64,000 nucleotides of DNA from IMG/VR virus record IMGVR_UViG_3300027806_000037, positions 1-64,000 of that record; one strand, 5' to 3'. Below, piece after piece: positions 5,546 to 55,678 of this stretch. A program made the position numbers and the translations under genes. The first letter of the stretch is position 1, and each line of letters opens with the position of its first letter. Source of the stretch: a virus. Lineage: Duplodnaviria; Heunggongvirae; Uroviricota; Caudoviricetes. The notes beneath the pieces were generated by a model, which saw nothing but the letters and a program-made list of their open reading frames with translations, ran no database searches and was not told the origin of the DNA.

Positions 5546-5809
5546 ATGAGTACTGAAATGAGAAAACTCATAAATGAGTTTAATAACATTAACGAATCAA
5601 GTTTAAATAGAATATATAGTCATATTCAAAAATATGAATGCGCAATTATAACAGCGTTTAAAGGTAAGTTAACTAACTGTAGAACCGAAAATGATAATGA
5701 AAAAAGAATATATATTAGACAGAACAAGGATAGAAATAAACTTTTAAAATCAGCTTTATTATTTTTTGGATATCAAATTACAAAAGTAAAAGGTACTTAT
5801 GTTGAATAA
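5546..5809 (+). CDS. hypothetical protein
   Basis: 87-aa ORF. Confidence 0.4.
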   Translation: MSTEMRKLINEFNNINESSLNRIYSHIQKYECAIITAFKGKLTNCRTENDNEKRIYIRQNKDRNKLLKSALLFFGYQITKVKGTYVE

Positions 5810-5888
5810 ACCACAAACCCGCCACTTGCATATACACGCTGTTATAAGCAGGTGCGGTATTATAGCACAGAACTTGATTTGAAAGACG

Positions 5889-5937
5889 AAACCTTTTTCT
5901 TTTCTTTTTGTGTGGTGGGAAAATAAAATTTAAAATA
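5889..5937 (+). promoter_or_regulatory. conserved about 50-nt upstream element AACCTTTTTCTTTTCTTTTTGTGTGGTGGGAAAATAAAATTTAAAA (copy 1, upstream of IleRS-like gene)
   Basis: near-identical copy at about 10684..10748 upstream of another gene. Confidence 0.4.
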
Positions 5938-7911
5938 ATGAATAAAGTATTATTACCAAAAGAAGAAATTACACAGAAGTTAGATAGAGATAAACTTACT
6001 TTATTGAACGCTTCTATCAAAGATTATGTGAACAACTTGTATGAAAATTCAAATGATGAATACATTATACAAGATGGTGAACCATACGCCAATGGAGAAT
6101 TACATTTGGGACATTTTTTAAACAAAACCTTGAAAGATTTTGTTGTAAAATATTACTTAACAAAAGGTAAGAAAGTTAGGGTTTCATTTGGTTGGGACTG
6201 TCATGGTTTACCCATTGAAAATAAAGCAAAAGAAATGAGTGGTGATTTAATTCAAAATGCTAAATTAGTCGCAACCAAATATTGTGATATTCAAAATAAA
6301 ACTCTTGAACTTTTCGGGATTTATCCAACTGAAGGTAGGTTTAAAACTATGGATATTGATTTTATAGAAAGAGAATTATATATATACCACCAACTACTAA
6401 ATGCGGGTCTAATTCTTAAAAAGAATAAGCCTACTTGGTACTCACCAACATTAAAAACAGTATTGGCTAACTCAGAAATTGAATATAAAAAAATAGAAGA
6501 TGAATCTTTGTATTTTCTATTCAACTCTGATAGTTTTAAATTACTTGTTTGGACAACAACAGAATGGACTGTAAACGGAAATCAGGCAGTATGTTTAAGT
6601 AATAATATAAAATATGTTAAAACTGTTGACAATATTATTTGTAGTGAAAGTTTTGCTATTGAAAATAATTTAGATTATGATTTGTTTGATGTGAGTAATA
6701 TTAAGTCATATCATAACCACAATGGAGATTTATGTCCAATTATTTATGATGACTACGTTTCAGATGATAAAACAGGTATAGTACATCTTTGCGGTGGACA
6801 CGGTGATGAAGATTATCGAATTTTAATGGATAATAACATAACCCCCAAAAATGTGTGCGATAAAATCGGCTTATTAAAACACATAGAAGATTTTAAAATT
6901 GATGAAAAGTTTGTATATAAACGTGAAATTTACACACACGATTATCCAATTGATTGGCGTGAAGGGAATAAGGTGTATAAAGTATTAACGGAACAAACGT
7001 ATCTTGATTTTGATTTAAACAAAATAAAGACTTGTTTAAAAGAAATAAAGTTATCATCAAAAGACAGAAATCGTTTATCAACGACAATATTTTCACGCAA
7101 AGATTGGTGTATTTCAAGACAAAGAAAATGGGGTGTTAAAATACCTAATAGTAATGATATATTGGATGTTTGGTTTGATAGTGGTTCTACATTTATGATG
7201 TATGATAAACCTGCCGATATATACATTGAAGGTTCAGACCAACACAGAGGGTGGTTTCAAAGTTCGATTATATTAGCATCAATGATTGGTCGAGTACCAA
7301 CAAAAAGAATAATAACACACGGATTTATTGTTGATAACACATTAGAAAAACTATCAAAATCAAAAGGTAATGGCGGAAGTTTGGAAAAGCTGTATGAAAC
7401 ATATAACCCTGATGTATTAAGACTATGGGTTTTACTGTCAGATTTTAAAAACGATATTGTCTTTTCGGAAGATTCATTAAAAAACTCTGGTAAACAATAT
7501 TTTAAAATAAGAAACTTTCTCCGTTATTTATTTAATAATCTATATATATATGATTATGATGAAACAAAAGTTGATGAAAATATTTTTTTTAAAGTAAAAG
7601 AGTTGGAAAATAAATTTGATTTACTTGTCAATGAATTTGATTTGAATAAAGCAGTAAGGGGTTTTGTTGAATTTATAAACTATTATTCATCTTTGTTGAC
7701 GGAGGATATTAAAAATGAATTTTATGAATCTGACACAAATTCCAATATGAGAATTAAATATGAAACAGAGTTTTACTATGTTTTAAAACACTTAAATAAA
7801 CTACTTTTTTCGATTTTACCATTTCTTTCTATGGAAATAAAAAAAGCGTGGGAAGAAAAAAGAAAAGAAAAAGATTTACATGTAGGGACTATATTTGGAA
7901 ACGAGATGTAG
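5938..7911 (+). CDS. ileS: isoleucyl-tRNA synthetase-like class I aaRS, shortened (about 657 aa)
   Basis: PYANGELHLGHFLNKTLKDFVVKYY (HIGH region), GWDCHGLPIE, WTTTEWT, DWCISRQRKWGVKIP and KLSKSKGN (KMSKS) are IleRS signatures. Protein is about 250-400 aa shorter than canonical IleRS: reduced CP1, C-terminal Zn domain missing. Confidence 0.8.
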   Translation: MNKVLLPKEEITQKLDRDKLTLLNASIKDYVNNLYENSNDEYIIQDGEPYANGELHLGHFLNKTLKDFVVKYYLTKGKKVRVSFGWDCHGLPIENKAKEMSGDLIQNAKLVATKYCDIQNKTLELFGIYPTEGRFKTMDIDFIERELYIYHQLLNAGLILKKNKPTWYSPTLKTVLANSEIEYKKIEDESLYFLFNSDSFKLLVWTTTEWTVNGNQAVCLSNNIKYVKTVDNIICSESFAIENNLDYDLFDVSNIKSYHNHNGDLCPIIYDDYVSDDKTGIVHLCGGHGDEDYRILMDNNITPKNVCDKIGLLKHIEDFKIDEKFVYKREIYTHDYPIDWREGNKVYKVLTEQTYLDFDLNKIKTCLKEIKLSSKDRNRLSTTIFSRKDWCISRQRKWGVKIPNSNDILDVWFDSGSTFMMYDKPADIYIEGSDQHRGWFQSSIILASMIGRVPTKRIITHGFIVDNTLEKLSKSKGNGGSLEKLYETYNPDVLRLWVLLSDFKNDIVFSEDSLKNSGKQYFKIRNFLRYLFNNLYIYDYDETKVDENIFFKVKELENKFDLLVNEFDLNKAVRGFVEFINYYSSLLTEDIKNEFYESDTNSNMRIKYETEFYYVLKHLNKLLFSILPFLSMEIKKAWEEKRKEKDLHVGTIFGNEM

Positions 7912-7916
7912 CACTT

Positions 7917-8040
7917 GCTTATAACGGTTGCAAATATAAAACGTTTTAAACTAAACTTAAATTGAAAAACAGTATATAAATATAAACCAACAATAAATTT
8001 GGAACGCTGAAATAAATGTTTTATATTTGTTGTTATAAAC
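7917..8040. repeat. palindromic element (PE family: ATAACGGTTG-arm ... arm-TTGTTATAA)
   Basis: cttataacggttgcaaatataaaacgtttt ... aaatgttttatatttgttgttataa inverted arms. Confidence 0.5.
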
Positions 8041-8058
8041 ACGTTAAATTATTTTATT

Positions 8059-8337
8059 ATGAAAACATATAATGTAAAGTATGATGTTGGACAAGAAGTA
8101 TATATACTTTTATCCAAAAAAATATTTAAAAGTAAAATTGAAAAGATTAGAATTGTTCATGGGGTACCTTATATCAAAGGCGAAACAATGGAACAAATGG
8201 ATGGAATTGAAATTGATTACTTGGTTGTAGTTAATGAACAATTCTATCCTTCAGGTGGACATTTATCTAGTTATGATTGGTATAAACAGGATGATATTTT
8301 TTTGGATAAAGATGAACTGTTGCGGAAAATAATTTAA
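8059..8337 (+). CDS. hypothetical protein (PE-bracketed cassette ORF)
   Basis: 92-aa ORF between PE elements. Confidence 0.45.
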   Translation: MKTYNVKYDVGQEVYILLSKKIFKSKIEKIRIVHGVPYIKGETMEQMDGIEIDYLVVVNEQFYPSGGHLSSYDWYKQDDIFLDKDELLRKII

Positions 8338-8342
8338 TTGTT

Positions 8343-8397
8343 TATAACGTCTGATGATAAACAATCGTTTTAATGTGTTTTATTTGCTGTTATAAGT
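8343..8397. repeat. PE-family palindromic element (GATGATAAACAA...TTGTTTATC hairpin variant)
   Basis: ataacgtctgatgataaacaatcgttttaatgtgttttatttgctgttataag; same hairpin type recurs at about 12979..13040. Confidence 0.45.
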
Positions 8398-8419
8398 ATG
8401 TAATTTACAATTTATACCT

Positions 8420-8665
8420 ATGAAAAAAACGAAAAGAAAAATACATATTGGAAATGACCTATGGTTTTATTGGGTTGGTTCTGGTAGATGGGGTGAGGTA
8501 ACTCATGTAACGATATGTTCACCAGATGAACAATATTATAAAATAGATGCAAGTGATGTTGCAAGTAGTGAAATGTATGTTGGTGCGGAAGGGTCATTTC
8601 CAACACAAATATTACCGTCAAAAGTTAAAGAATATATTGAAAATAAAATAATAAATAAATTTTAA
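8420..8665 (+). CDS. hypothetical protein (cassette ORF)
   Basis: 81-aa ORF. Confidence 0.45.
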   Translation: MKKTKRKIHIGNDLWFYWVGSGRWGEVTHVTICSPDEQYYKIDASDVASSEMYVGAEGSFPTQILPSKVKEYIENKIINKF

Positions 8666-8673
8666 ATTATTAC

Positions 8674-8772
8674 TTATAACGGTTGGGTGTATGAGAAGGT
8701 TTGCTTAGATGAACTTTCAAATTAACCACTGAACTTTATAGCAAACTTTCTTATACACCTTGTTATGTGTAG
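8674..8772. repeat. PE-family palindromic element
   Basis: ttataacggttgggtgtatgagaaggtttgc ... gcaaactttcttatacaccttgttatgtgtagg; about 27-nt inverted arms, about 45-nt loop. Confidence 0.6.
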
Positions 8773-8836
8773 GTGTGGTTAATTAAGGTAGAATGTTAAA
8801 TAGTAGAAATGAACAAAAATTTTAAAAGAAAAATAT

Positions 8837-9247
8837 ATGAATTATAAACAAAAAATTACAACTATCAATTATTTTGAAAAGGTGGTTAAAATTTCTCTAA
8901 CAAGAGAAGAGTGGAATTCATCTGGAACTTGGGTAGAGTCAATGATGAAAAAAGGTTGTGAAAGACTGAGTAAGGATTGGTTTGAAGATTTACATCACTT
9001 AGTTATGCGACCAATAAGTGACGAAATAAACTTTTCTGGTAAAAACTATACTTATGATGTGGATATAACATTTGATATACCAAGAGAATTACTGAGAATG
9101 TTTGTATATTCAATCGGTCAAATTGCTTATGATTTTGATGTTAAAGGTATAACTTCGGTTACTGCTCAAAATATAGTGGGAAAAATAAACAAACAATTAA
9201 AAGAACAACTACCAAATGATGATAAATGGTTTCATTATGGATTTTGA
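8837..9247 (+). CDS. hypothetical protein (cassette ORF)
   Basis: 136-aa ORF. Flanks (gtggttaattaaggtagaatgtt...aaaaattttaaaagaaaaat upstream; tttcttttaaaattttcaaccgaaatgttgattagaacgatg...cttacacataacgt downstream) are repeated around ORF 13110..13334. Confidence 0.5.
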   Translation: MNYKQKITTINYFEKVVKISLTREEWNSSGTWVESMMKKGCERLSKDWFEDLHHLVMRPISDEINFSGKNYTYDVDITFDIPRELLRMFVYSIGQIAYDFDVKGITSVTAQNIVGKINKQLKEQLPNDDKWFHYGF

Positions 9248-9312
9248 TTTTTCTTTTAAAATTTTCAACCGAAATGTTGATTAGAACGATGAACGGAACG
9301 CTTACACATAAC
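9245..9312. repeat. about 70-bp direct repeat, copy 1 (TTTCTTTTAAAATTTT...GTTGATTAGAACGATG..GGAAC.CTTACACATAACGT)
   Basis: second copy at about 13325..13392. Confidence 0.55.
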
Positions 9313-9399
9313 GTATATCGGCTAAACGCAGTATTTAAAAACTTTTGCGAGGGAAATAATTAATCAATTAAATAATAATAATTAAAAACAAAAAGTAAA

Positions 9400-9723
9400 A
9401 TGGAAATCAAAACAAAATTTGACGTAAACAATTTGGTGAAAAGAAAATTCGACACCAATTCAAAGAACCAGATGAGTGCTTTGGAAGTAATGGAAGTGAT
9501 TGCACAAACTTGCTATGCAGGAACGCAGGTATTTTATTTGTGCAAACATGTAATTGCTCAAAAGGAATTTGTAGAAAAGTATTCTGAAAAAGGAGAATTT
9601 ACTTGGGTGATTGCTCACAGTATTTCACAAGAAGAAAATCAGGCAGGATGGAGAAAATACCGTGAAGATGAATTGATAGAAGCACCAAAAGAAGTGATTG
9701 ACATTATACTTGGTAATTCTTAA
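9400..9723 (+). CDS. hypothetical protein (cassette ORF)
   Basis: 107-aa ORF. Confidence 0.45.
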   Translation: MEIKTKFDVNNLVKRKFDTNSKNQMSALEVMEVIAQTCYAGTQVFYLCKHVIAQKEFVEKYSEKGEFTWVIAHSISQEENQAGWRKYREDELIEAPKEVIDIILGNS

Positions 9724-9767
9724 TTGTTCAATTGTGCGGTGGGAAAGTTTTTAAATATTGTCGTTTT

Positions 9768-9852
9768 AGCCGTTGTTATGCGAAGGTGTGGCAACTCCAA
9801 AATTTCAAATTATAGACAAAACTTTCTTGCCACACTTTTGCATAACGGTTGT
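9768..9852. repeat. PE-family palindromic element (inverted orientation)
   Basis: ccgttgttatgcgaaggtgtggcaa ... ttgccacacttttgcataacggttg. Confidence 0.55.
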
Positions 9853-9955
9853 AAATATGAGAAGTAAATTTTACCTATAAAAATTAGATAAATCAAAATT
9901 TATTTCTTATATTTGTTGTTATAAGTATGTAAAACAAACTAAATAATAATTAAAT

Positions 9956-10186
9956 ATGAAAATTGAAGGTCAAATTACGCTAGATGGTATATTATATACA
10001 CTGTTTATTTTATTCTGTTTATTTTTAACAATAGGTAGTTCTATTAGTGGGTGGTGGTATTTATCACACTTTGGATTCAGTGTAAAACAATTTTTGGTAA
10101 ATATTTTAGTTTCGTCTTCAACTTTATTTATGATCTGGATGATTTTCACTAAAATATTTATTATAAAAATAAACAGAATAAAGTAG
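9956..10186 (+). CDS. small membrane protein (cassette ORF)
   Basis: 76-aa ORF with two hydrophobic segments. Confidence 0.45.
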   Translation: MKIEGQITLDGILYTLFILFCLFLTIGSSISGWWYLSHFGFSVKQFLVNILVSSSTLFMIWMIFTKIFIIKINRIK

Positions 10187-10197
10187 TTTGTTTTATT

Positions 10198-10337
10198 ACT
10201 TATAACGGTTGAGTATAACCGAAGGTGGGGATTAGAAGTGCCGAACCCTGACTTACCTACAAAAGTAAATTAGAAGCACAATATCTGAATGTTGGAACTA
10301 CACCCCACTTTTGGTTATACTTTGTTAGGTGTATGTA
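10198..10337. repeat. PE-family palindromic element
   Basis: ttataacggttgagtataaccgaaggtgggg ... ccccacttttggttatactttgttaggtg. Confidence 0.55.
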
Positions 10338-10350
10338 AATTTTACGGATT

Positions 10351-10539
10351 ATGAAAGATATACAACTGTTAATTGATATGAAAGTTTCTTTAGGTAGGGA
10401 AACATTATTATTTCAGATACTTGGTAAGTATGGTGATAAAATACCAATGGAACTTCAAGAAGAACTACGAAAATTGGCAGAAGAAGAAAGAAACTTTGGT
10501 GAAATGAAGAAACGAACTTTGAAGGGTGTGTTGGAGTAA
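10351..10539 (+). CDS. hypothetical protein (cassette ORF)
   Basis: 62-aa ORF. Confidence 0.4.
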   Translation: MKDIQLLIDMKVSLGRETLLFQILGKYGDKIPMELQEELRKLAEEERNFGEMKKRTLKGVLE

Positions 10540-10548
10540 AATTTATTA

Positions 10549-10640
10549 CACCTAACGGTTGGGTGTATGAAACGTAGCCACGCACAATACTTAATATAAA
10601 CCACAGACCTTAATTGGCTATGTTTTATACACGATGTTAG
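10549..10640. repeat. PE-family palindromic element
   Basis: cctaacggttgggtgtatgaaacgtagcc ... ggctatgttttatacacgatgttagc. Confidence 0.55.
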
Positions 10641-10683
10641 CAGTAGTACGGATTTAAACTACAAATGCTCATTCGGAGAACTG

Positions 10684-10748
10684 AACCTTTTTCTTTTCTT
10701 TTTTGTGGGTTGGACAAAATAAATTTGAAAAATTTAAAAATAAATAAT
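10684..10748 (+). promoter_or_regulatory. second copy of conserved about 50-nt upstream element (AACCTTTTTCTTTTCTTTTTTGTGGGTTGGACAAAATAAATTTGAAAAATTTAAAA)
   Basis: matches 5889..5937. Confidence 0.4.
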
Positions 10749-10982
10749 ATGAAATTAGAAACAATTGTAAAAGTTACACCAGATGGTGGAGTTGAAATTC
10801 CTTCTGATATGAAAGTTGGAACTGGATTGATGAATATGGTAAAAGAATTACGTGATAATGAATGGAGAACATTTGAACATCACGATAATTGGATTAAAAA
10901 CGAACATTATCCAAATCCAACATTTGAACAACAATTTGATACAGGTAATGCTTATAAAGAAATGTTAAAAACTAAAATTTAA
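10749..10982 (+). CDS. hypothetical protein
   Basis: ATG (MKLETIVKV) inside track ORF 10665..10982. Confidence 0.45.
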   Translation: MKLETIVKVTPDGGVEIPSDMKVGTGLMNMVKELRDNEWRTFEHHDNWIKNEHYPNPTFEQQFDTGNAYKEMLKTKI

Positions 10983-10986
10983 AACT

Positions 10987-11586
10987 ATGATGAAAATTGA
11001 AGCAAAAAAAGACGGTAAAGGAAACATTGTAATATCGGAAGATTCCTTTGAAATGATACTGGCTTGTTTAGATAATCAAAAATTTGTTGGTGAACAGCCA
11101 CAAAATGGTGATTCGCTTTCGGTAGGCGAAGACAACTATTGGAAAGGACAAGAAGATATTCAAAACACTATTGACCATTATAATAGAGAATGTAGAAAAA
11201 TATTACATCAAAAATATGTTTTAAGAACAGAATCTGATGGTTATTTTCTTGCTAAAAAATATGAACATCAAACAGAAGATACTGAATGGACTGGTGAAGA
11301 TGTTGGATTAGTGTATGAACTATTCAAAGATACAAGAATAATTTATAATGAAACAAGAGATTTATTACCATTAGATGGTAGTGAAGAAATTAAGGAAGGA
11401 AGTACTCCAATTGGTAAAACAAAAGATGGGTGGATTGCAGTTGAACAAGAATCAAGACCTTGGTTAATTGAAAGAGCATTGGGATATGATGGTGATTATT
11501 TAACAATTTCTGAAGATGGCAGTAAGAATAGACCTTGGAAACAAGATGAAATTCGAAAAATTATAAACATATTTAATAATAAATAA
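10987..11586 (+). CDS. hypothetical protein
   Basis: 199-aa ORF. Confidence 0.5.
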   Translation: MMKIEAKKDGKGNIVISEDSFEMILACLDNQKFVGEQPQNGDSLSVGEDNYWKGQEDIQNTIDHYNRECRKILHQKYVLRTESDGYFLAKKYEHQTEDTEWTGEDVGLVYELFKDTRIIYNETRDLLPLDGSEEIKEGSTPIGKTKDGWIAVEQESRPWLIERALGYDGDYLTISEDGSKNRPWKQDEIRKIINIFNNK

Positions 11587-11587
11587 A

Positions 11588-11995
11588 ATGGGAATATTTG
11601 ATTGTTTAATAGATAAAGACAATGGAAAACCAAAATCTGATATGGAATATATTTACAGATTAGATATGGTTTGGATACCTAACAAACTTGAAAGTAAACC
11701 AATTAAAATTGGAACGATAATGAATAATGTTATTCAACGAGATAATGGCAGTTATGAATTTACTTGTAAAGAAACTGGTGAAAGATTACAAGCAACTTAT
11801 TCTTGGGCTTTGGCTGAAAACACACCAGAAAATGTTGAAAGAATAAAAATATATGATGATGAATATTTAAAATTCAAAGAATACGAAAGAAAAATAAATT
11901 CTTTGAGAAATAATATTATTACTCTTAAAGAGCGTGGAGAAAAAAGAAAAGAAAAAGATATTGCAGATGAAACTCAAATCGGAGAACAAATGTAG
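11588..11995 (+). CDS. hypothetical protein
   Basis: 135-aa ORF. Confidence 0.5.
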   Translation: MGIFDCLIDKDNGKPKSDMEYIYRLDMVWIPNKLESKPIKIGTIMNNVIQRDNGSYEFTCKETGERLQATYSWALAENTPENVERIKIYDDEYLKFKEYERKINSLRNNIITLKERGEKRKEKDIADETQIGEQM

Positions 11996-12000
11996 TATTA

Positions 12001-12062
12001 CACATAACGGTTCGGCGGGTTGCCGTTGTGCATTCAATAACGGCAACCCGACTGTTATGCGG
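12001..12062. repeat. PE-family palindromic element (compact)
   Basis: cataacggttcggcgggttgccgttgtgcattcaataacggcaacccgactgttatgcg. Confidence 0.55.
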
Positions 12063-12100
12063 GGTCATTCTTTTTCACTCGGTAAAAAGCAAAAGGTACA

Positions 12101-12403
12101 ATGGCAAAAAGGAAGTTAGGCCCATCGAGCGGCAAGTGCTCCAAGTGCGGAGGTCACATCAGCATCAATCCACCAAGACCGTGCCGCCGCTGCTCAGGCG
12201 AAAAGCCTCAGGCGAGCTCGGAAAAGAAAGAGCGCGTGTTCACCGAGAGCGAGGTGAAGGCGATGGTGCGAGAGATTCTCGCAGAACAGGAACGACTGCA
12301 TATAAGCGATGGATCCGGAGGACACGATATTGTGTGGGCGGTCGGGATCGGAGAGGTCGAGGCGGTGTTTAAAGCGCACGGCATTGTTCTCGATCCCGCA
12401 TAA
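12101..12403 (+). CDS. hypothetical protein encoded by a GC-rich (about 58% GC) cassette, likely foreign
   Basis: 100-aa ORF MAKRKLGPSSGKCSKCGGH...; its stop codon lies inside the ATAACGGTTG box of the next PE. Composition contrasts sharply with the about 30% GC surroundings. Confidence 0.5.
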   Translation: MAKRKLGPSSGKCSKCGGHISINPPRPCRRCSGEKPQASSEKKERVFTESEVKAMVREILAEQERLHISDGSGGHDIVWAVGIGEVEAVFKAHGIVLDPA

Positions 12404-12530
12404 CGGTTGACGGTATGAAAAGTTGGGGATTAAAAGATATAAACTTTCGCACCGATACAATGATAATTAATAGTACAAACCTTCGGGAACGCACACACGC
12501 CCCAATTTTTTATACCGTGTGTTATGCCCC
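12398..12530. repeat. PE-family palindromic element
   Basis: gcataacggttgacggtatgaaaagttgggg ... ccccaattttttataccgtgtgttatgcccc. Confidence 0.55.
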
Positions 12531-12549
12531 GTTTTTATCCAATTTTTTA

Positions 12550-12971
12550 TGTTACAAGACGAATTAGCATTACAATATAAATACAAAAAACTTCCATCAG
12601 AATTATCTGACAAGGTAAGAAACCAATATTTGTCTGAAATACCAAAATGTTTGAATATCAATGGTGATTCTGAATTTGAGTTAAAAACAGCAAACGGTAC
12701 AATAATTTCAAAAGGATATGAAAGAATTGTAATTGGAGATTATGGAGCGTTTATTGAATTTAACAGAAATCAAGTTATTGACGAAAATATTTGTATTCAA
12801 AAGGGGCAAGAATATAGAATTAACGATGAAAAATATAGTAAGAATGTGAAATATTTTTGGTTGACTGCAAAAGATTCATCGTGTATAAAGATATATTTAC
12901 AACAGAAAACGGTATCATACGCAGATTATAAACCAAATATGTATTACGTGTCTCCATTTGAGGTTTTTTAA
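12550..12971 (+). CDS. hypothetical protein (cassette ORF)
   Basis: ATG (MLQDELALQYKY) inside track ORF 12519..12971. Confidence 0.45.
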
Positions 12972-12978
12972 ATGGGGA

Positions 12979-13040
12979 ATAACGTCCGATGATAAACAAT
13001 CGTTTTAATGTTGTTTATCATTTGTTATGTGTAGGTGTGG
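12979..13040. repeat. PE-family element (ATGATAAACAA hairpin variant) plus shared right flank
   Basis: ataacgtccgatgataaacaatcgttttaatgttgtttatcatttgttatgtgtaggtgtgg. Confidence 0.5.
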
Positions 13041-13109
13041 ATTATTAAGGTGGAATGTTTAATCGGAGAACTGAACAAAAATTTTAAAAGAAAAATTAAT
13101 ATATAGATT

Positions 13110-13334
13110 ATGGGAAACATAGTTAAAAAATTTGAAAACTTTAAAGATGGGTTATACGTCACATGTAAAAACGCACCAGAAGATAATTACCAACTTCATA
13201 ATAAAAAGGATTATTTGGTTATTAAATATGATAACCAACCGTATGGTGTTGGACGAGTAACTATATTTAACCCTTCAAGTAGAAAGGAAGAAACATATCC
13301 TAAAACTATGTTTAGTGAACCATTTAACAAATAA
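13110..13334 (+). CDS. hypothetical protein (cassette ORF)
   Basis: 74-aa ORF flanked by the same modules as 8837..9247. Confidence 0.45.
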   Translation: MGNIVKKFENFKDGLYVTCKNAPEDNYQLHNKKDYLVIKYDNQPYGVGRVTIFNPSSRKEETYPKTMFSEPFNK

Positions 13335-13392
13335 TTTTTCTTTTAAAATTTTAAACATAGATGTTGATTAGAACGATGGGTGGAACACTTAC
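13325..13392. repeat. about 70-bp direct repeat, copy 2
   Basis: tttcttttaaaattttaaacatagatgttgattagaacgatgggtggaacacttacacataacgt. Confidence 0.55.
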
Positions 13393-13476
13393 ACATAACG
13401 TTTCGCAGCTTGGCGAGGTGCGGGATTTACAGCACTAAAGACGATTAGAATTACAAATTTTTAAATAAAAAACAAT

Positions 13477-13758
13477 ATGTCAAACGAAGTACAAAACCCC
13501 GCATCTTGCCAAACTGCTGTTATATGCCGCCTTTTTGATTTGGGAAGGAAAGGGTTAACATGGGATTGGTCAAAATTGGAACTGAAAAAACAATACTTTA
13601 TCAGTCGTGAAGATGTTTTGAATATGAATATGCTTTGGCAACTTGCACAAGGTGGTATAACTGAACAAGCACAATCTTTGAATGCAGAAGTATTGATTTG
13701 GGAAGATGTCATAAAAAACGGATGGTACTTGTTGCTGAGACCGCAAGGTGGCATATAA
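13477..13758 (+). CDS. hypothetical protein (cassette ORF, moderately GC-enriched)
   Basis: 93-aa ORF; stop inside an ATAACGGTTTGCG half-PE. Confidence 0.45.
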   Translation: MSNEVQNPASCQTAVICRLFDLGRKGLTWDWSKLELKKQYFISREDVLNMNMLWQLAQGGITEQAQSLNAEVLIWEDVIKNGWYLLLRPQGGI

Positions 13759-13790
13759 CGGTTTGCGTATTGCTGACGTTGCCAATTTGA
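13746..13790. repeat. PE half-element (left box only)
   Basis: catataacggtttgcgtattgctgacgttgcc. Confidence 0.35.
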
Positions 13791-13825
13791 AACACAAATG
13801 TTGAATTAAAAACAAAAAAATAAAT

Positions 13826-14044
13826 ATGAAAATCAGAGTTGAAGTTAAAGACGAAGCTGGCAATGTTCAGCAATACGTTGTTAGGCGCAGTTACTTGGTC
13901 AAATTTGTTGACCCGAAGAAAGAGTATCCTGTTACCTACACAATTAAACACGATGGCACAAGAGTAAATGAACCTGCAATGCTCAAAGGCGAAGATTTAA
14001 CCGAAAATCAAATTGCACAACTTTTCTCGAAGGGTTTGTTGTAA
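13826..14044 (+). CDS. hypothetical protein (cassette ORF)
   Basis: 72-aa ORF. Confidence 0.45.
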   Translation: MKIRVEVKDEAGNVQQYVVRRSYLVKFVDPKKEYPVTYTIKHDGTRVNEPAMLKGEDLTENQIAQLFSKGLL

Positions 14045-14046
14045 TT

Positions 14047-14150
14047 GCGCCTAACGATTGGGTGTATATGTAGTTTTTTATTTGGAAATGTCAAAACTTA
14101 TTCGTACCTTTGTAAAAAAAATTACATATACACCTTGTTATGTATAGTTT
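14047..14150. repeat. PE-family palindromic element
   Basis: cctaacgattgggtgtatatgtag ... ttacatatacaccttgttatgtatag. Confidence 0.55.
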
Positions 14151-14174
14151 ATTCACAAATTAAAATAAAAGTTT

Positions 14175-14381
14175 ATGAAACAACCAAAAATTAAAATAAC
14201 CGACATTCACGGTAAAGACTGGGGTATTAAAAAAGTAAAAACACTTCATTGGAATTTGGACGGAAAATTAAACACAATTCAAGTTGATTTTTCTGGAACT
14301 ATGGATATGTATGATTTAGATGATGAAGGCGTTTTTACTAATCCACATGGTAATATGAAAGGCGTTATCATTTGGGAATAA
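14175..14381 (+). CDS. hypothetical protein (last cassette ORF before recombinase)
   Basis: 68-aa ORF. Confidence 0.45.
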   Translation: MKQPKIKITDIHGKDWGIKKVKTLHWNLDGKLNTIQVDFSGTMDMYDLDDEGVFTNPHGNMKGVIIWE

Positions 14382-14392
14382 ATTATACATAA

Positions 14393-14486
14393 CTAGTATA
14401 TATAAGTAAGTATAATCTAACCACTTAAAAATAAAGGACTTGAATAATAAAATTATTAAGATTTGTGAAGAAAAGTTTATATATTT
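14393..14486 (+). repeat. 94-bp perfect direct repeat, copy A (covers promoter region and first 15 codons of the tyrosine recombinase)
   Basis: ctagtatatataagtaagtataatctaaccacttaaaaataaaggacttgaataataaaattattaagatttgtgaagaaaagtttatatattt, identical at 43982..44075. Confidence 0.8.
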
Positions 14487-15240
14487 AAACTATTCACCAA
14501 GAACAAAAGATAATTATCTTTCACATATAAAAAATTTCTTAAATCACATTGGTAGTAAACAAGTAATACATTGTAATGCTCAAGATTTTCAATCCTATTT
14601 AGATAATTATAAATTCACTTCAACAGCACAACAAAACCAAATCATTAACGCAATAAGATTTCTCTACAAATTTGGTCTTAATAAAAAATATGATAAAATA
14701 TCGTTTAAAAGACCTAAATCTGAGAAGAAACTACCAAAAGTAATTGATTCAAATTCAATCATTGATAAATTAAATAAGATTGATAATCTCAAACACAAAG
14801 CAATTCTCACCTTAACTTTTTCAGTTGGTCTACGAGTCTCAGAAATAATTAATCTTAAAATAGAGGATATTGATTCCAAGCGAATGTTAATCCACATTAA
14901 GAACGCAAAAGGAAGAAAAGATAGAGTTGTTCCATTATCTCAAAATGTATTAAGACTATTAAGAACTTATTATAAAAATTATATCCCAAAGGAATATCTC
15001 TTCAATGGACAAAACAGTACTAAATATTCAATAGGTAGTTGTCAGAAAATATACAAAAAATATATTGAATCTGATGGACATATACACACACTTAGACACA
15101 GTTTTGCAACATCCTTATTAGAAAATGGAACAGATTTAAGAATTATTCAAAAAATTCTTGGTCATTCAAATGTTAAAACCACAGAAATATACACACACGT
15201 TTCAAATCAAATTTTGAACAAAATTAATTTGCCAGTTTGA
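14440..15240 (+). CDS. tyrosine site-specific recombinase/integrase (XerC/D-like), apparent TTG start
   Basis: Catalytic set R (LRVSEI), K (HIKNAKGRKDR), HxxR (HTLRHSFAT), H...Y (LGHSNVKTTEIYTHV). No in-frame ATG near the N-terminus; the frame opens after a stop at about 14413. Confidence 0.8.
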   Translation: MNNKIIKICEEKFIYLNYSPRTKDNYLSHIKNFLNHIGSKQVIHCNAQDFQSYLDNYKFTSTAQQNQIINAIRFLYKFGLNKKYDKISFKRPKSEKKLPKVIDSNSIIDKLNKIDNLKHKAILTLTFSVGLRVSEIINLKIEDIDSKRMLIHIKNAKGRKDRVVPLSQNVLRLLRTYYKNYIPKEYLFNGQNSTKYSIGSCQKIYKKYIESDGHIHTLRHSFATSLLENGTDLRIIQKILGHSNVKTTEIYTHVSNQILNKINLPV

Positions 15241-26337: not shown

Positions 26338-26468
26338 AATCCTATTAGCGTCCATAACGCCTAATACAATAGACGCTATACAGCTTAATACAATAGCGTC
26401 CATAACGCCTAATACAATAGACGCTATACAGCTTAATACAATAGCGTCCATAACGTCTAATAGGACCG
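26338..26468. repeat. 48-bp tandem repeat (about 2.5 copies) with internal ATAGCGTC/GACGCTAT inverted repeats, the whole block enclosed by CCTATTAG...CTAATAGG
   Basis: unit gcgtccataacgcctaatacaatagacgctatacagcttaatacaata; lies inside a 650-bp ORF-free region that also has TTAACTTA direct repeats at about 26250..26280. Confidence 0.7.
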
Positions 26469-29355: not shown

Positions 29356-30210
29356 ATGAACAATCGAATTGAACAAGTTTTGAACGAAACCGGACTTAAC
29401 TGGACCGTTCGTGAAGAAAGCATGGTAACAGCAAGCGGAATCGTGATTCCGGATCGCAAAGCACTCATCCGTGAGGATAATAATGAGGTATTGTCTGTGC
29501 ATGGTGAAGGTTATCAAGCATATCAGAATTACCAACTCGTTGAACTCTTGGATAGGGTTTCCGCACAAGTTGGTCTACCAATTCATTCAGGTGGTCTATT
29601 TGGTGAGGGTAAAAAAGTATTCATCCAACTTAAATCGAATGACCTTTCGCTCGGTTCTGACAAAGTTGTTGGATACATCACCGGAATTAATTCATTCGAT
29701 GGATCCACAAGTCTTGCGTTCGGACCAAGCAATTTGACCATTTCATGTCAGAATACATTTTTCTCGGTCTTCAGAACATTGGAGAATAAGATTAAGCATA
29801 CCAAGAATATGGAATTGCGAATTGATGATGTATGCAAAGGTATGGAGGTTGCAATGAAGGAAGAAGCAAAAATGTTTGAAACCATCAAACGAATGTTTGA
29901 AACAGAGTTTGGTGCGAAGGAACGAGATTTTGTCACCAAGACATTGTTTAACGTTAAGGATAATGTTAATCTTATGGATATTGATGCGGTATCGACAACC
30001 ACAAGAAATCGCATCACAACTTTTGAACATGACTTGCTCCGCGAATTGAAAGAAAAGGGTAATACCTTGTGGGGTTTGTTCTCAGGTGTGACACGATACA
30101 CAACGCACTCTTTGGGTAAAGGTGATAGTACGGAGAATAAGATGTTCGGAACCTATGGAAATCGTGAGCGACAAATTTTTAGGGAATTGAGCGAACTTGT
30201 GGAGGGATAA
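29356..30210 (+). CDS. DUF932-family protein (phage/ICE-associated)
   Basis: ATG (MNNRIEQVLNETGLNWTV...); GLNWTV ... SVHGEGYQAYQN ... VGYITGINSFDGSTSLAFGPS is the DUF932 pattern. Confidence 0.55.
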   Translation: MNNRIEQVLNETGLNWTVREESMVTASGIVIPDRKALIREDNNEVLSVHGEGYQAYQNYQLVELLDRVSAQVGLPIHSGGLFGEGKKVFIQLKSNDLSLGSDKVVGYITGINSFDGSTSLAFGPSNLTISCQNTFFSVFRTLENKIKHTKNMELRIDDVCKGMEVAMKEEAKMFETIKRMFETEFGAKERDFVTKTLFNVKDNVNLMDIDAVSTTTRNRITTFEHDLLRELKEKGNTLWGLFSGVTRYTTHSLGKGDSTENKMFGTYGNRERQIFRELSELVEG

Positions 30211-33899: not shown

Positions 33900-33972
33900 G
33901 TCTAAAAATAGTTATTAACATTCGTTGGAGATAAAAGATTTATGTGTATATTTGTATTAAACAAAACAACAA

Positions 33973-34422
33973 ATGAAAGCAACGCTTGAAAACGGAATTG
34001 TCATCGAACTCACGCAAGAACAACTTGCTCAGATTGATAAACAACGAAATAAAGATGTTAAAACCAAAGAACAACGATTCTTGGAATTGATTTCAGGAAT
34101 TGATGTTCATCAACCGAAGGTTGATTTCCAAAAATATCCAAATCTCTTGTTTTGGTTTGATAAAGATGGAAATTATGTCTGCGAATACGATTGGAAAAAT
34201 AACCATTTTTGGTTCTCATATTCAAATGTTTGGTCAGTTTTTGAATCGGAATTCGCCCTTAATTATCAGGAAATCAGGATGTTCTTGAATGGTATGGTGG
34301 AAGAACATTTCAAATTGGAGGGTGTTACAACAAAGGCAACTCACGCCGCCCCTGCTGTTGCGGTGGAAGAACATTTCAAATTGGAGGGTGTTACAACCAA
34401 AAGTGACCCGTTGTATAATTAA
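33973..34422 (+). CDS. hypothetical protein, paralog A (contains internal 45-bp tandem duplication EEHFKLEGVTTK)
   Basis: about 95% identical to 38456..38839 over 125 aa. Confidence 0.55.
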   Translation: MKATLENGIVIELTQEQLAQIDKQRNKDVKTKEQRFLELISGIDVHQPKVDFQKYPNLLFWFDKDGNYVCEYDWKNNHFWFSYSNVWSVFESEFALNYQEIRMFLNGMVEEHFKLEGVTTKATHAAPAVAVEEHFKLEGVTTKSDPLYN

Positions 34423-34494
34423 TGTTAATAACTAAATTTGGTGGTTTGATTTTTTCTTTTTAACTTAGCATTAGAAACCAAAAACAACAAAACA

Positions 34495-43701: not shown

Positions 43702-43760
43702 CATAACGGACAAGTGTATACCGCGTGGCTTTGCATGCGGTATACACGTAGATGTGCAAC
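43702..43760. repeat. PE-family palindromic element
   Basis: gcataacggacaagtgtataccgcgtggctttgcatgcggtatacacgtagatgtgc. Confidence 0.5.
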
Positions 43761-43970
43761 GTTCTCTTCACTCTTAAAGCATTAGGCATGATAAAGACTA
43801 AGTACAGGGCAACGGTTCAAAAAGGCCAAGGCGATAAGTTCTTTGAATGGGAAGTTGTGGTCGAGGCATGGAACATTGGTGAGGCGGCAACGATGGTCCA
43901 CAACCAAGTAAAGGACTTCGACGGATGGACCGTTGCCATCGAACAAGATGATGATGCCGTTCTTTCTTGA
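43752..43970 (+). CDS. hypothetical protein (PE-bracketed, GC-enriched about 48%)
   Basis: 72-aa ORF immediately upstream of direct-repeat copy B. Confidence 0.45.
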   Translation: MCNVLFTLKALGMIKTKYRATVQKGQGDKFFEWEVVVEAWNIGEAATMVHNQVKDFDGWTVAIEQDDDAVLS

Positions 43971-43981
43971 ATGTTGCACAT

Positions 43982-44075
43982 CTAGTATATATAAGTAAGT
44001 ATAATCTAACCACTTAAAAATAAAGGACTTGAATAATAAAATTATTAAGATTTGTGAAGAAAAGTTTATATATTT
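43982..44075 (+). repeat. 94-bp perfect direct repeat, copy B
   Basis: identical to 14393..14486. Confidence 0.8.
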
Positions 44076-45665: not shown

Positions 45666-45682
45666 TAATAATTATTTTTGAT

Positions 45683-45758
45683 TGTTAATAACTTTCACTT
45701 GCATTGAATCAGAAATTGTTGTAGCTTTGCATCATTAAACCAACAAAAACAATCAACC
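45683..45758 (+). repeat. about 75-bp identical repeat, copy 1 (stop-proximal GTTAATAAC motif plus promoter/leader)
   Basis: gattgttaataactttcacttgcattgaatcagaaattgttgtagctttgcatcattaaaccaacaaaaacaat, repeated at about 46728..46800. Confidence 0.7.
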
Positions 45759-46492: not shown

Positions 46493-46728
46493 ATACACTT
46501 AAATCGTTTAATGCCGCGCAAGCATGGAAAACAACACAAGCAGCTTGGTTAGATGAAATTGAAAAAATTCTTAATTTGATCCAAGAAAAAGCAAAAGCAA
46601 AAGAAACAACATTAGTTTTAGAATATAAGATGAATCAAATTTTGAAAAGAATTTTAATAGAAGAATATGGATTTAATGTTTCATATCATTATTTGACTGA
46701 CAAAATACTAACAGAAATTCGTTGGTGA
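46489..46728 (+). CDS. hypothetical protein
   Basis: 79-aa ORF. Confidence 0.45.
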   Translation: MNTLKSFNAAQAWKTTQAAWLDEIEKILNLIQEKAKAKETTLVLEYKMNQILKRILIEEYGFNVSYHYLTDKILTEIRW

Positions 46729-46800
46729 TTGTTAATAACTTTCACTTGCATTGAATCAGAAATTGTTGTAGCTTTGCATCATTAAACCAACAAAAACAAT
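46728..46800 (+). repeat. about 75-bp identical repeat, copy 2
   Basis: see 45683..45758. Confidence 0.7.
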
Positions 46801-54496: not shown

Positions 54497-55144
54497 ATGA
54501 AAAAAAGAGAATTTACCAAAAGAGAACAAAATCGAATAGCGAAAAGGGAGTGGGAAAAATCCCAAAGAAACGCTATATTAAAAAATATTAATAACCTCTT
54601 AGGTAAGAAAAGAGAATTCTCTCATCCATATGTGGGTACTATAACAATATACAATAATTGTTTAGCATACGAAAATTGTAACTTCTCCAACGGATATAAA
54701 GGAAAATTAATTTTTAAGAAAGAATTTGTTGAATTGCTTGAAACGAAATATGGTAAGGATGCACATCTCCAAATAACAGACATTGGGGGTTCCGTCTCAT
54801 TTTTTGGAATAGGTAATTTGGAATATGACCAATTTGATTTTATTACTAAAAACTTTAATAACAATATTAAATTAATAGAGAATATATGTTTCATCAAAGA
54901 AAATGCTTATACAAATAATTATGGGGAAACAATTAATATGAATAAAACCCAAGATGGGGATGTTTATTTTAAGCATGGGGATTCTCATAATAAAATTATT
55001 AAGTTTGATGATTTGTTAAAGACTAATCCTCTAAAATTAGCAGCTATTCTAAATTTGTGGGAAAAGAAATCTGTATGTGGTTTATTATTCGGAACAAAAT
55101 ATGGTTATCTTATTCGATATATTATGAATCAATCTCCATATTGA
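54497..55144 (+). CDS. hypothetical protein, tandem paralog 1
   Basis: C-terminal half (YGETINMNKTQDGDVYFKHGDSHNKIIKFDDL ... KKSVCGLLFGTKYGYLIRYIMNQSPY) homologous to the next gene. Confidence 0.5.
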   Translation: MKKREFTKREQNRIAKREWEKSQRNAILKNINNLLGKKREFSHPYVGTITIYNNCLAYENCNFSNGYKGKLIFKKEFVELLETKYGKDAHLQITDIGGSVSFFGIGNLEYDQFDFITKNFNNNIKLIENICFIKENAYTNNYGETINMNKTQDGDVYFKHGDSHNKIIKFDDLLKTNPLKLAAILNLWEKKSVCGLLFGTKYGYLIRYIMNQSPY

Positions 55145-55260
55145 CCCTCCCCCATTTAAATAAATGAGGAGGTCATATGTTTAAAAGAATTTTTGGGAAA
55201 AATTTTGAATATTGGATTCTTCTCCCTACCTTTGTACCCAACAAAATAAACCTTATAAAA

Positions 55261-55575
55261 ATGAACTACAACTCGGAAATTAATTTTGCTAATAAAACCA
55301 ATTTTAATATTGTCAGGAAAGATGCTTATGCAAATAAGTATGGGGAAACGATTGACATGATTGAAACCCAAGATGGGGATGTTTATTTTAAGCATGAGGA
55401 TTTTCATAATCAATTTATTAAATTTGATGATTTGGTTAAGGGGGGTGAATTTAGGGATAACATTAAATTGATTATTATTATGAATCTTGAGGAAAAGAAA
55501 TTTGTATGTAATTTCTTAATGGGTACAAAATATGAATATCTTATTCCCCACATTATGAATCAATCTCCATATTGA
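55261..55575 (+). CDS. hypothetical protein, tandem paralog 2
   Basis: YGETIDMIETQDGDVYFKHEDFHNQFIKFDDL ... KKFVCNFLMGTKYEYLIPHIMNQSPY. Confidence 0.5.
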   Translation: MNYNSEINFANKTNFNIVRKDAYANKYGETIDMIETQDGDVYFKHEDFHNQFIKFDDLVKGGEFRDNIKLIIIMNLEEKKFVCNFLMGTKYEYLIPHIMNQSPY

Positions 55576-55678
55576 CCCCCTTAAGATAAATAAGGGTCAA
55601 AATGTGAAAAAGAATTTTTGGGAAATTCAAAACTTTTCCTTACCTTTGTATCAACAAACAATTTAAACAAAATAAACT

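Follow-up and report, generated by a model that had tools for sequence, protein, structure and literature searches.

A probable integron-like cassette platform, with a Xer-like recombinase in place of IntI, in a phage genome

In the first 64,000 nucleotides of the IMG/VR virus record IMGVR_UViG_3300027806_000037 (Caudoviricetes; this whole stretch is referred to here as the window), a run of small open reading frames (ORFs), each accompanied by a palindromic element (PE), leads up to the gene of a tyrosine recombinase. The DNA belongs to a large phage with hosts of the Bacteroidota type. The question raised by this locus is whether a phage can own an integron. To our knowledge, integrons are regarded as an invention of bacteria and, more recently, also of archaea, with the integrase IntI as their defining feature. 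An initial reading of this DNA, made from its letters alone and called here the sequence-only reading, had proposed an integron-like cassette system in a phage, served by a small, co-directional recombinase that is not an IntI. This proposal is supported here by the fold of the PEs, by the turnover of cassettes in related phages and by the confinement of the PEs to arrays. Three further observations strengthen it: the ends of a cassette are complementary to each other, cassettes common to different phages extend exactly from one TAAC to another, and a conserved half-site resembling attI adjoins the recombinase gene. We conclude that the locus is probably a phage-borne, integron-like cassette platform with a non-IntI recombinase, which would act on the folded sense strand.

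The array consists of 14 cassettes at 5.65-14.39 kb of the window, each of which opens with a PE, and all of which lie on the + strand (Table 1). Thirteen of the PEs are complete. The bracketing of individual ORFs by palindromes between 7.9 and 14.4 kb, described in the sequence-only reading, was confirmed, but the array begins further left. An aminoacyl-tRNA synthetase (aaRS)-like gene is bracketed in the same way as the other cassettes, with GTTATAAGCAGGTGC at 5841 and the reverse complement GTTATAAGCAAGTGC at 7925, and the start of the array is therefore placed near 5.65 kb. Some details of that first description have to be revised. PEs do not occur in both orientations, and the seeming inverted copy at 9775-9846 is the pair of inverted repeats at the cassette ends around an ORF-less segment. 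The loops are not limited to 10-50 nt: they reach about 70 nt, and PE 9309-9778 encloses an entire ORF. Two of the three stop codons that had been placed within a box, at 12403 and 13758, do use the TAA of TAAC, but the one at 14044 lies 7 nt ahead of the box. The unit of high GC content stood up well, the cassette at 12008-12403 having 55% GC compared with 21-38% in the other cassettes.

The PEs have a common plan, with TAACG at the start, a GTT bulge, a covarying stem of 17 bp or more, and TGTTA at the end. The consensus of 283 non-redundant copies reads A-T-T-N5-(A/C)-TAAC-G-(G/T)TT-G on the left and T-T-N3-TATA-N5-TGTTA-(T/G)-N5-G-T on the right. These copies are 48-199 nt long, with main classes of 80-90 and 110-130 nt; attC sites of integrons measure 57-141 nt. 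When RNAalifold was run on 42 diverse PEs of 80-95 nt, it gave a 5-bp TAACG/TGTTA helix closed by a G.T pair, a 5' bulge of 3-4 nt (GTT), a 17-bp stem and a variable loop. Of the 17 pairs in the stem, 15 show compensatory changes, and a single position may have as many as four types of pair; covariation scores 0.658 as against 0.17. The proportion of alignment cells that are paired is 96.5%, a value inflated by the pre-selection of the PEs on their Watson-Crick stem score, compared with 70% in shuffled alignments and 33-52% after sliding of the partner column. In 39 of the 42 sequences one particular G.T pair is retained. The fold also differs between the strands. Whether RNA or DNA parameters are used, the + strand is predicted to be more stable than the - strand in 259-263 of the 283 copies (p about 1e-40); the mean folding energy with RNA parameters is -29.8 kcal/mol for the sense strand and -24.2 kcal/mol for the other, and a covariance model scores the two strands at 84 and 20, 71 and 26, and 65 and 20 bits. 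The copies thus form a conserved, covarying and bulged hairpin that folds better on one strand, as had been anticipated for sites of the attC type.

The elements are not generic hairpins of the intergenic regions. The motif ATAACGGTTG, exact or with one mismatch, has 8 copies at 7.9-13.8 kb and only 2 in the remaining 56 kb (at 43323 and 57737). The covariance model, built on PEs of other genomes and run with its filters off over all 64 kb, has matches only in the two arrays, at 7.9-14.1 kb and at 43.3 kb (43324), apart from a weak match without boxes at 56116.

A further regularity is found at the ends of the cassettes. If the 12 nt that follow the right box of a PE are compared with the 12 nt ahead of the left box of the next PE, on the far side of the ORF, the two prove complementary. 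In the window the cassette ends score 8.9/12, compared with 4.9/12 within the same PE and 4.6 for unrelated pairs, and the observed total was reached in 0 of 100000 permutations. The same holds for 160 non-redundant pairs of adjacent PEs from other genomes, with 7.43 across the ORF, 4.39 for the same PE and 4.24 for random pairing. The complementarity resides in positions 1-6 and 8-11; between them, at position 7, 126 of the 160 pairs have a conserved T.G mismatch. If the two ends of a cassette are joined, they lengthen its hairpin, and the mean predicted DNA energy is then -22.6 kcal/mol (circle form) compared with -14.8 kcal/mol for the form in the array and -18.6 kcal/mol for the opposite strand. 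In integrons, complementarity of this kind is the trace of a circle with one long hairpin site, which was inserted via a crossover inside that site.

The array closes with N6-TAAC-TAGTATATATA, which has its TAAC at 14390 and lies 47 nt ahead of the recombinase gene. Among the related loci, 49 fit a strict form of the half-site TAAC-TAT(T/A)ATATATA, and in nearly all of these it is 38-60 nt on the 5' side of the start codon; each of the 68 non-redundant loci has a variant of it. As with attI, the site adjoins the gene of the enzyme and appears to receive cassettes, in that cassettes common to several phages stand last in three of the loci (L014, L015 and L049).

The gene that follows encodes a complete tyrosine recombinase, as the sequence-only reading had stated (Pfam Phage_integrase, 1.9e-37), with LRVSE, KGRKDR, HTLRHS, GHS and Y as its aligned catalytic motifs. 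Among the NCBIfam models, XerA_Arch ranks first with 195 bits (cut-off 220), followed by XerC with 161 and XerD with 159, all below their equivalog cut-offs. The integron-integrase model TIGR02249 reaches 161 bits (cut-off 265), in a match that falls into two pieces. The insertion specific to IntI, the part that touches extrahelical bases in integron integrases, is absent: residues 174-209 stand opposite residues 177-260 of VchIntIA (2a3v), so that about 48 aa are missing. The best relative of solved structure is XerA of P. abyssi (4a8e, 3.9e-37). Because the insertion is absent, the integron model is below its cut-off and split, and XerA is the best family, the recombinase is, as judged from its sequence, a simple Xer-like enzyme and not an IntI. 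It is also small and encoded on the same strand as the cassettes, as had been proposed.

IMG/VR has 80 loci with relatives of this recombinase (55-80% identity), the longest of their contigs being 362 kb. A protein search returned at least 5896 clusters at 90% identity, mostly labelled 'XerD', on contigs of up to 566 kb; the best 120 of these are all at least 76% identical. Among cultured phages the best match is only 41% identical (Cellulophaga phage Ingeline). The PEs go with the recombinase. In a hairpin scan of 30 loci, with 10 kb taken on each side, 112 PEs lie upstream of the recombinase on its strand and 0 downstream on the + strand, and their density climbs toward the gene, 30 of them being in the last kilobase. 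The covariance model, applied to 26 loci (540 kb, again with 10 kb on each side), places 110 of its 111 matches upstream, all on the + strand.

The cassettes, by contrast, are not conserved. A tblastn search with the 15 array ORFs of the window against 121 loci (1.6 Mb) found the recombinase in 89 of them but no homolog of any array ORF, and the genes downstream of the recombinase in the window recur in few of the 121. The relatives keep the recombinase and terminal site yet carry entirely different cassettes, which is what the sequence-only reading would lead one to expect. Over 177 cassettes the length has a median of 465 nt. In 158 of 175 cassettes of the relatives, and in all those of the window, the longest ORF shares the strand of the recombinase and points toward it.

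An all-against-all comparison of the regions upstream of the recombinase shows that near-identical segments placed in differing contexts end exactly at the boxes. A cassette of 960 nt (99.9% identity) is internal in one locus (L001, -3387 to -2428) and last in two others (L014 and L015), where it abuts TAAC|TATTTTATATA; it runs from TAAC to TAAC, and its right neighbours have only TAAC in common. From the recombinase on, L001 and L014 are about 96-97% identical, but their common cassettes (99.9-100%) are reordered, and each has private cassettes beside the recombinase. Between L001 and L002 the arrays have nothing in common, although identity is 94% from the terminal site on. Two cassettes, of 277 nt (97%) and 422 nt (98%), are common to phages whose recombinases are 72% and 67% identical. 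Cassette C8 of the window recurs in a genome of about 52% GC (L130-L135), with its PE and leader about 97% identical and its ORF protein 72%; the similarity starts at AACGG and stops at TAACG, which are once more the limits from TAAC to TAAC. These comparisons indicate that cassettes are exchanged between phages and reordered within arrays, with breakpoints inside the four nucleotides TAAC.

On the basis of these observations, we propose a scheme for the movement of the cassettes. The mobile unit extends from one TAAC box to the next, and consists of C-G, the hairpin (PE), GTTA, a 5' flank x, one or more ORFs, a 3' flank x' and TAA. The recombinase would excise this unit as a circle, by recombination of TAAC with TAAC. 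In the circle x' and x would meet, and would extend the stem of the PE by about 11 bp, including the conserved T.G wobble. The circle would then re-insert at the terminal half-site beside the recombinase gene. We take the folded sense (+) strand as the probable substrate, because the conserved G.T wobbles and the 3-nt GTT bulge make the + strand fold better, and only one strand would be exchanged, in the manner of attC x attI recombination (PMC8946536). Both the single-stranded substrate and the role of the recombinase in cassette exchange are parts of the scheme that we infer. More speculatively, the foldable strand could be the template of lagging-strand synthesis, since the GC skew is positive throughout the window, and this would favour folding.

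How close is the likeness to integrons? In both, a tyrosine recombinase from the neighbourhood of Xer and IntI adjoins a fixed insertion site and an array of cassettes, whose content is hypervariable and horizontally exchanged. The PEs are, like attC, imperfect palindromes with AAC...GTT boxes and a bulge, conserved in structure and variable in sequence and terminal loop, and their strand-selective fold with unpaired bases is predicted from the GTT bulge, the G.T wobbles and the bias to the + strand. The boxes TAAC and GTTA, which are invariant by selection, contain the AAC and GTT of the integron consensus RYYYAAC/GTTRRRY, but the R/Y pattern beyond is not kept (A in 68% at -1, T in 65% at +1). 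The crossover appears to be at AA|C, given that the boundaries of cassettes common to several phages lie inside TAAC and that the junction at a second locus, described below, starts from the C of TAAC. The far end of a cassette complements its own site, as the start of an integron cassette complements the inverse core of its site. A useful geometric control came from a scan of bacterial genomes. Contig CBDCUI010000009.1 (L180, 2128-6292), from a gammaproteobacterial metagenome-assembled genome, carries a classical chromosomal integron, in which a 327-aa IntI accompanies four attC sites. Its geometry is identical when the recombinase strand is the one read: the bottom strands of the attC sites, TAACG...CTTGTTA, are upstream of IntI, and ...CTCTAAC|TATAAG adjoins the 5' end of the gene as an attI-like site, with the folded-strand sites upstream (PMC8946536), but the ORFs are on the other strand. 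There are also differences. The phage enzyme has 266 aa and lacks the IntI-specific insertion, its score of 161 bits being below the cut-off of 265. In integrons intI diverges from the cassettes, most of which lack a promoter and are transcribed from Pc, at the attI end. Here the gene is not divergent from the array: the ORFs of the phage cassettes are co-directional with the recombinase and face it, and the hairpin is 5' of its ORF. The outer stem is of about 11 bp with a conserved T.G, compared with 7 bp of RYYYAAC/GTTRRRY in integrons, the attI-like site is TAAC followed by an AT-rich palindrome, and the whole is carried by a huge phage.

Several observations weigh against the proposed scheme. 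The G.T wobbles of the sense strand are equally compatible with an RNA structure, and the pre-selection of PEs mentioned above applies to the strand statistics as well as to the covariation, although it does not inflate the conservation of G.T or the strand asymmetry. The array of the window phage is identical in all samples recovered (contigs with an identical recombinase or C8), so that no ongoing activity is seen at the scale of samples. The only variant, from another lake sample (L127, 1-986), is 99.9% identical from window position 10262 on and different upstream. Its breakpoint coincides with a conserved motif in the PE 10203-10327 loop, and the contig may be either an assembly chimera or a product of loop-mediated recombination. 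PEs are also found without an evident enzyme. LR756500.1, an uncultured phage of 462 kb, has about 10 PEs on the - strand at about 15.3-19.7 kb of the locus and no recombinase homolog within 20 kb on either side, and the virulent Polaribacter phage P12002L (48.7 kb, NC_028924) has at least 4 PEs and no annotated integrase. Finally, unrelated ORFs are found within the same leader and trailer. The sequence-only reading had remarked on the common flanks of the ORFs at 8837 and 13110, and these were verified: 8766-8834 and 13028-13096 precede the two ORFs, 9247-9308 and 13334-13395 follow them, and the flanks agree over 75 nt at 91% and over 77 nt at 84%. A perfect 19-nt inverted repeat (AAAATTTTAAAAGAAAAAT / ATTTTTCTTTTAAAATTTT) hugs each of the two ORFs, the copy in C3 being at 8816-8834 / 9247-9265. 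A crossover in TAAC explains neither these swapped ORFs nor the breakpoint in the PE loop. Together with the ORF that lies in the loop of a PE and the ORF-less hairpin of C4, they suggest a second level of modularity beyond the TAAC crossover.

Could the enzyme have been acquired for another purpose? In integrative mobile elements exploiting Xer (IMEX), mobile DNA makes use of a recombinase that has its own task. By analogy, the core job of the phage recombinase could be, for example, the resolution of multimers at a dif-like terminal site, and the cassettes would be selfish hairpin elements that hijack it; the chemistry would be that of the proposed scheme, but its purpose and evolutionary logic would differ. 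In Vibrio, dif is where CTX, TLC and related elements accumulate, and the CTX phage uses a folded single-stranded attP with XerCD. IMEX and pdif systems in general have a Xer-type recombinase, tandem stacking at one regenerated site and, in CTX, a folded single-stranded hairpin as substrate, and the pdif modules of Acinetobacter plasmids are placed between alternately oriented sites. The phage enzyme does belong to the Xer family and not to IntI, it is unusually conserved (as seen in the best 120 of the at least 5896 clusters) when its neighbours are not, and the terminal site is regenerated by each insertion. However, that site is TAAC with an AT palindrome, and a 28-bp XerC/XerD-type site, of two 11-bp arms and a 6-bp spacer, is conserved neither there nor at the boxes. 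The recombinase is encoded by the phage beside the site, and the cassettes are mostly single small genes, ordinary, co-oriented and phage-like, with no functions in replication or mobility, in place of replicons or resistance modules. That nearly every relative has an array suggests benefit and not parasitism. We consider this explanation unlikely. A different objection would be that the recombinase has nothing to do with the array, being the integrase of an unrelated lysogeny system whose attP is adjacent by chance, and that the PEs are regulatory hairpins in a hyperplastic region, shuffled by homology, microhomology or template switching. The promoter early stem-loops (PeSLs) of T4-type phages, which are the closest phage precedent for cassette shuffling, behave in this way: in large virulent phages these stem-loops recur between the genes of a hyperplastic region, on the flanks of ORFans, where they mediate modular shuffling and give mini-circles, and circular intermediates have been proposed (PMC2839356, PMC4122927). 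It could be added that accessory genes often cluster near int/attP, that some phages with PEs have no annotated integrase, and that the loops of some PEs hold a promoter of host type, TTTG...TAnnTTTG (for example at window 14085-14113). Against this, PeSLs have a conserved sequence, comprising a strong sigma-70 promoter and a terminator, and recombine by homology without a dedicated recombinase, whereas the stems of the PEs covary and so offer little homology, and the recombinase and terminal site are always adjacent to them. The breakpoints are confined to a box of 4 nt and lack homology on both flanks, as between a PE interior and the terminal site, and the junction partners have only TAAC in common. 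The terminal site is itself a TAAC box with a left flank that pairs with the last cassette. Nor are promoter and terminator motifs a general property of the PEs: host-type -7 boxes are found in 34 of 283 copies on the + strand and 43 on the -, without strand bias; intrinsic terminators number 1 in the array as against 3.0 expected, with no T-runs; and sigma-70-like sites (69, compared with 57 +/- 7 expected) are at the level of chance. A scan of 596 Gb of bacterial and archaeal genomes with the PE pattern gave 77 matches, about the number estimated for chance, and no evidence of prophages; only two of these are PE-like (L139 and L194), two more doubtfully so (L198 and L178), and another is the integron described above. 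The near-absence from bacterial genomes argues against lysogeny, and this reading as a whole seems to us quite improbable.

The folded strand could in principle be a transcript. The PEs and the pairings of x with x' would then be processing or stability structures of a polycistronic RNA, like the RNase III sites of the early T7 transcript, and shuffling would be a side effect. The sense orientation of every element, the several conserved positions compatible with G.U wobbles and the better fold of the sense strand with RNA parameters, given above, all agree with this. It leaves unexplained the sharp breakpoints at TAAC, the reordering of cassettes and the half-site conserved at the recombinase, as well as complementarity that spans translated ORFs of up to 2 kb, and no family in Rfam matches the PEs; we rate it as very improbable. 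The last alternative, that the array is a fragment of a bacterial integron captured from the host, has to be considered in view of the work of Qi et al. 2023 (PMC9892861), who applied IntegronFinder/HattCI to phage genomes and found clusters of attC sites without an integrase (CALINs) in virulent phages. Their hairpins, ...ATAACG...CTTGTTAT..., bracket phage genes and resemble the PEs, and IntI1 recombined 5 of 6 phage sites, with P12002L_attC1 as the exception (PMC9892861). This site (TGCTAACGGCTACGGCTAAACGGTCGTTTTAATGCCGTTTTAGCCATTGTTAGG; 30037-30057 of NC_028924, - strand) belongs to the PE family, with the loop of the window PEs 8345 and 12980 and the arms of PE 9309. Around gp54/gp55 of P12002L the covariance model detects another three PEs, which obey the rule of end complementarity. 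Thus the sole clear member of the PE family that was tested is the one that IntI1 did not recombine. Moreover, the cassette ORFs are oriented opposite to those of integron cassettes, there is no IntI, and the arrays are tied to a phage-specific clade of recombinases, on contigs of up to 566 kb. The sites in that study were treated as integron parts for a bacterial IntI1, and no cognate phage recombinase, terminal site or end rule was described (PMC9892861). We find an origin by capture scarcely credible.

Two other candidate identities of the PEs were rejected. They do not belong to a known RNA family in Rfam, and the boxes do not form a double-stranded core of the dif or lox type (arm-spacer-arm), the N6 and the inner arms varying independently.

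A wider picture can be offered tentatively, and we regard it as possible, though somewhat short of probable. The huge phages of aquatic Bacteroidota may own an integron, in which a Xer-like enzyme without the IntI domain has independently acquired the ability to recombine hairpins of folded single-stranded DNA at AA|C. It would maintain a common pool of self-contained cassettes, circulating among co-infecting phages that differ widely in lineage and GC content, and the same pool would account for the orphan 'attC' clusters of smaller virulent phages. We met no description of the complete platform (recombinase, terminal site and cassettes) in the literature searched by motif and concept, a coverage that leaves out most subscription journals. 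If the picture is correct, it provides a concrete mechanism behind the ORFan-rich hypervariable regions of large phages and the flow of genes among unrelated phages, and a new reading of the integrase-less 'attC clusters' of virulent phages. It would also represent a second, independent route to structure-specific recombination, by a simple Xer-like enzyme, which bears on the evolution of IntI from Xer and might yield a small orthogonal recombination tool. The thousands of cassettes would be a catalogue of candidate phage genes for accessory functions, host takeover or anti-defence.

The features of the array and of the second locus are listed in Table 1.

Table 1. Coordinates in the window of the cassettes, of the site and gene that close the array, and of the second locus. 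Scores in bits are from the covariance model.
Feature	Position	Strand	Details
Candidate distal PE (weak)	5649..5844	+	TAACAGCGT...ACGCTGTTA, 9-bp stem, 180-nt interior; right box GTTA 5841-5844 opens the aaRS cassette
C0, 2273 nt	5652..7924	+	aaRS-like gene 5938-7911; complementary ends GTTA-TAAGCA-G-GTGC / GCAC-T-TGCTTA-TAAC
C1	7925..8347	+	PE 7922-8035, ORF 8059-8337 (92 aa)
C2	8348..8679	+	Short PE 8345-8392, ORF 8420-8665 (81 aa)
C3	8680..9311	+	PE 8677-8765 (84 bits), 75-nt leader, ORF 8837-9247 (136 aa), 77-nt trailer
C4	9312..9845	+	Split PE 9309-9778 with ORF 9400-9723 (107 aa) in its loop; then ORF-less hairpin segment 9779-9842
C5	9846..10205	+	PE 9843-9921, ORF 9956-10186 (76 aa)
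C6	10206..10555	+	PE 10203-10327, ORF 10351-10539 (62 aa)
C7	10556..12007	+	PE 10553-10639, ORFs 10749-10982, 10987-11586 and 11588-11995; weakest end complementarity of the array (6/12)
C8, 55% GC	12008..12403	+	PE 12005-12057, ORF 12101-12403 (100 aa)
C9	12404..12982	+	PE 12401-12524, ORF 12549-12971 (140 aa)
C10	12983..13398	+	Short PE 12980-13027 (widespread type GTCCGATGATAAACAATCGTTTTAATG...), C3-type leader and trailer, ORF 13110-13334 (74 aa)
C11	13399..13758	+	PE 13396-13522, ATG 13477 in loop; ORF to 13758, stop is TAA of next box
C12	13759..14054	+	PE 13756-13883, ATG 13826 in loop; ORF to 14044
C13, last cassette	14055..14392	+	PE 14052-14140, ORF 14175-14381 (68 aa)
Terminal attI-like half-site	14382..14404	+	AT-TATACA-TAAC-TAGTATATATA; left part from last cassette, right part conserved in 68/68 non-redundant related loci
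Xer-like tyrosine recombinase, 266 aa	14440..15240	+	TTG start; N-terminal SAM-like domain and catalytic domain
Mini-array PE and cassette	43324..43706	+	PE 43324-43406 (65 bits), ORF 43425-43694 (89 aa), end flanks GTTATGCACAG and TTGTGCATAAC
Aberrant PE-like unit	43704..43981	+	Higher-GC ORF (43752/43788-43970), flanked by 11-nt inverted repeat AGATGTGCAAC / GTTGCACATCT
Terminal-site copy	43982..44075	+	94 nt at 100%: right half of terminal site and first 47 nt of recombinase gene

The second locus repeats the arrangement on a small scale, in that the only other cluster of PEs in the window is closed by a second copy of the terminal site. Because this 94-nt copy starts at the C of TAAC, the junction is placed at TAA|C. 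The region 43324-44075 has the appearance of a secondary platform for insertion, or of a scar left by ectopic recombination.

The cargo consists of small ORFans and the aaRS-like gene. Searches of all cassette ORFs with Pfam and PHROGs gave nothing usable, the only clear matches of the array region being the recombinase and the aaRS-like protein (657 aa, tRNA-synt_1 at 1e-65). A role in accessory functions, host takeover or anti-defence is a guess. The 2.3-kb cassette of the aaRS-like gene, with its complementary ends, suggests that the translation genes of huge phages can travel as cassettes. A leader of the form GAAC-CTTTTTCTTTTCTTTTT-GTG-GGTGG...AAAATAAA is common to 5870-5937, ahead of the aaRS-like gene, and 10664-10748, ahead of ORF 10749, and a T-rich stretch resembling it precedes the ORF at 16388. 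L139 has the leader and trailer of C3 and C10 as well, and the trailer recurs in both L045 and L079. The ORF-less segment 9779-9842 is a hairpin with a 20-bp stem, between a right box and the next left box, and matches the covariance model weakly (24 bits); segments of the type GTTA-[hairpin]-TAAC and TAAC-[hairpin]-GTTA may be related.

None of 50,697 phage records matched 7-16 kb of the window by megablast, and blastn with one PE gave only a match of 42 nt, in the huge phage LR756500.1. The PEs of P12002L (L217, 29226-30060 and 38035-39245) bracket DNA methyltransferase genes. In the Polaribacter phage Freya and in Ingeline, TTGTTGCTAAC is found on the 5' side of the integrase, with no clear array of PEs. 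In Freya_10 (L122, 1-4150) and Ingeline_1 (L123, 5818-6001), ATTGTTGCTAACACCC is directly upstream of an integrase that is 36-41% identical to that of the window, and Freya_1 to Freya_10 differ in the length of the region ahead of the integrase, with a range of 83 to 4180 nt. These may represent a distant version of the platform in small phages.

The window has about 30% GC, and nearly all of its ORFs are on the + strand. It contains two tRNAs and an RNA ligase in addition to the aaRS-like gene, which is of class I. Promoter boxes of the Bacteroidota type (TAnnTTTG) are repeated at 26-52 kb. The 9-nt palindrome GTTAWTAAC, equivalent to two PE boxes fused, has 13 sites at 18150-49501 (for example at 33911, 34424, 38841 and 42203), compared with 1.1 expected. 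Most are about 27 nt upstream of such -7 boxes (TAnnTTTG), as a repeated intergenic family, and may be bound by a dimeric regulator or by the recombinase. At 26346-26465, where long ORFs are absent, there are four to five tandem copies of a 24-nt unit (TAGCGTCCATAACGCCTAATACAA / TAGACGCTATACAGCTTAATACAA). It is worth adding that the region of small genes holds several duplications, dispersed or in tandem, of 75-300 nt with 82-100% identity, which are unrelated to the PEs: 33933-34494 and 38416-38911, 45679-45753 and 46726-46800, and 54900-55147 and 55319-55578.

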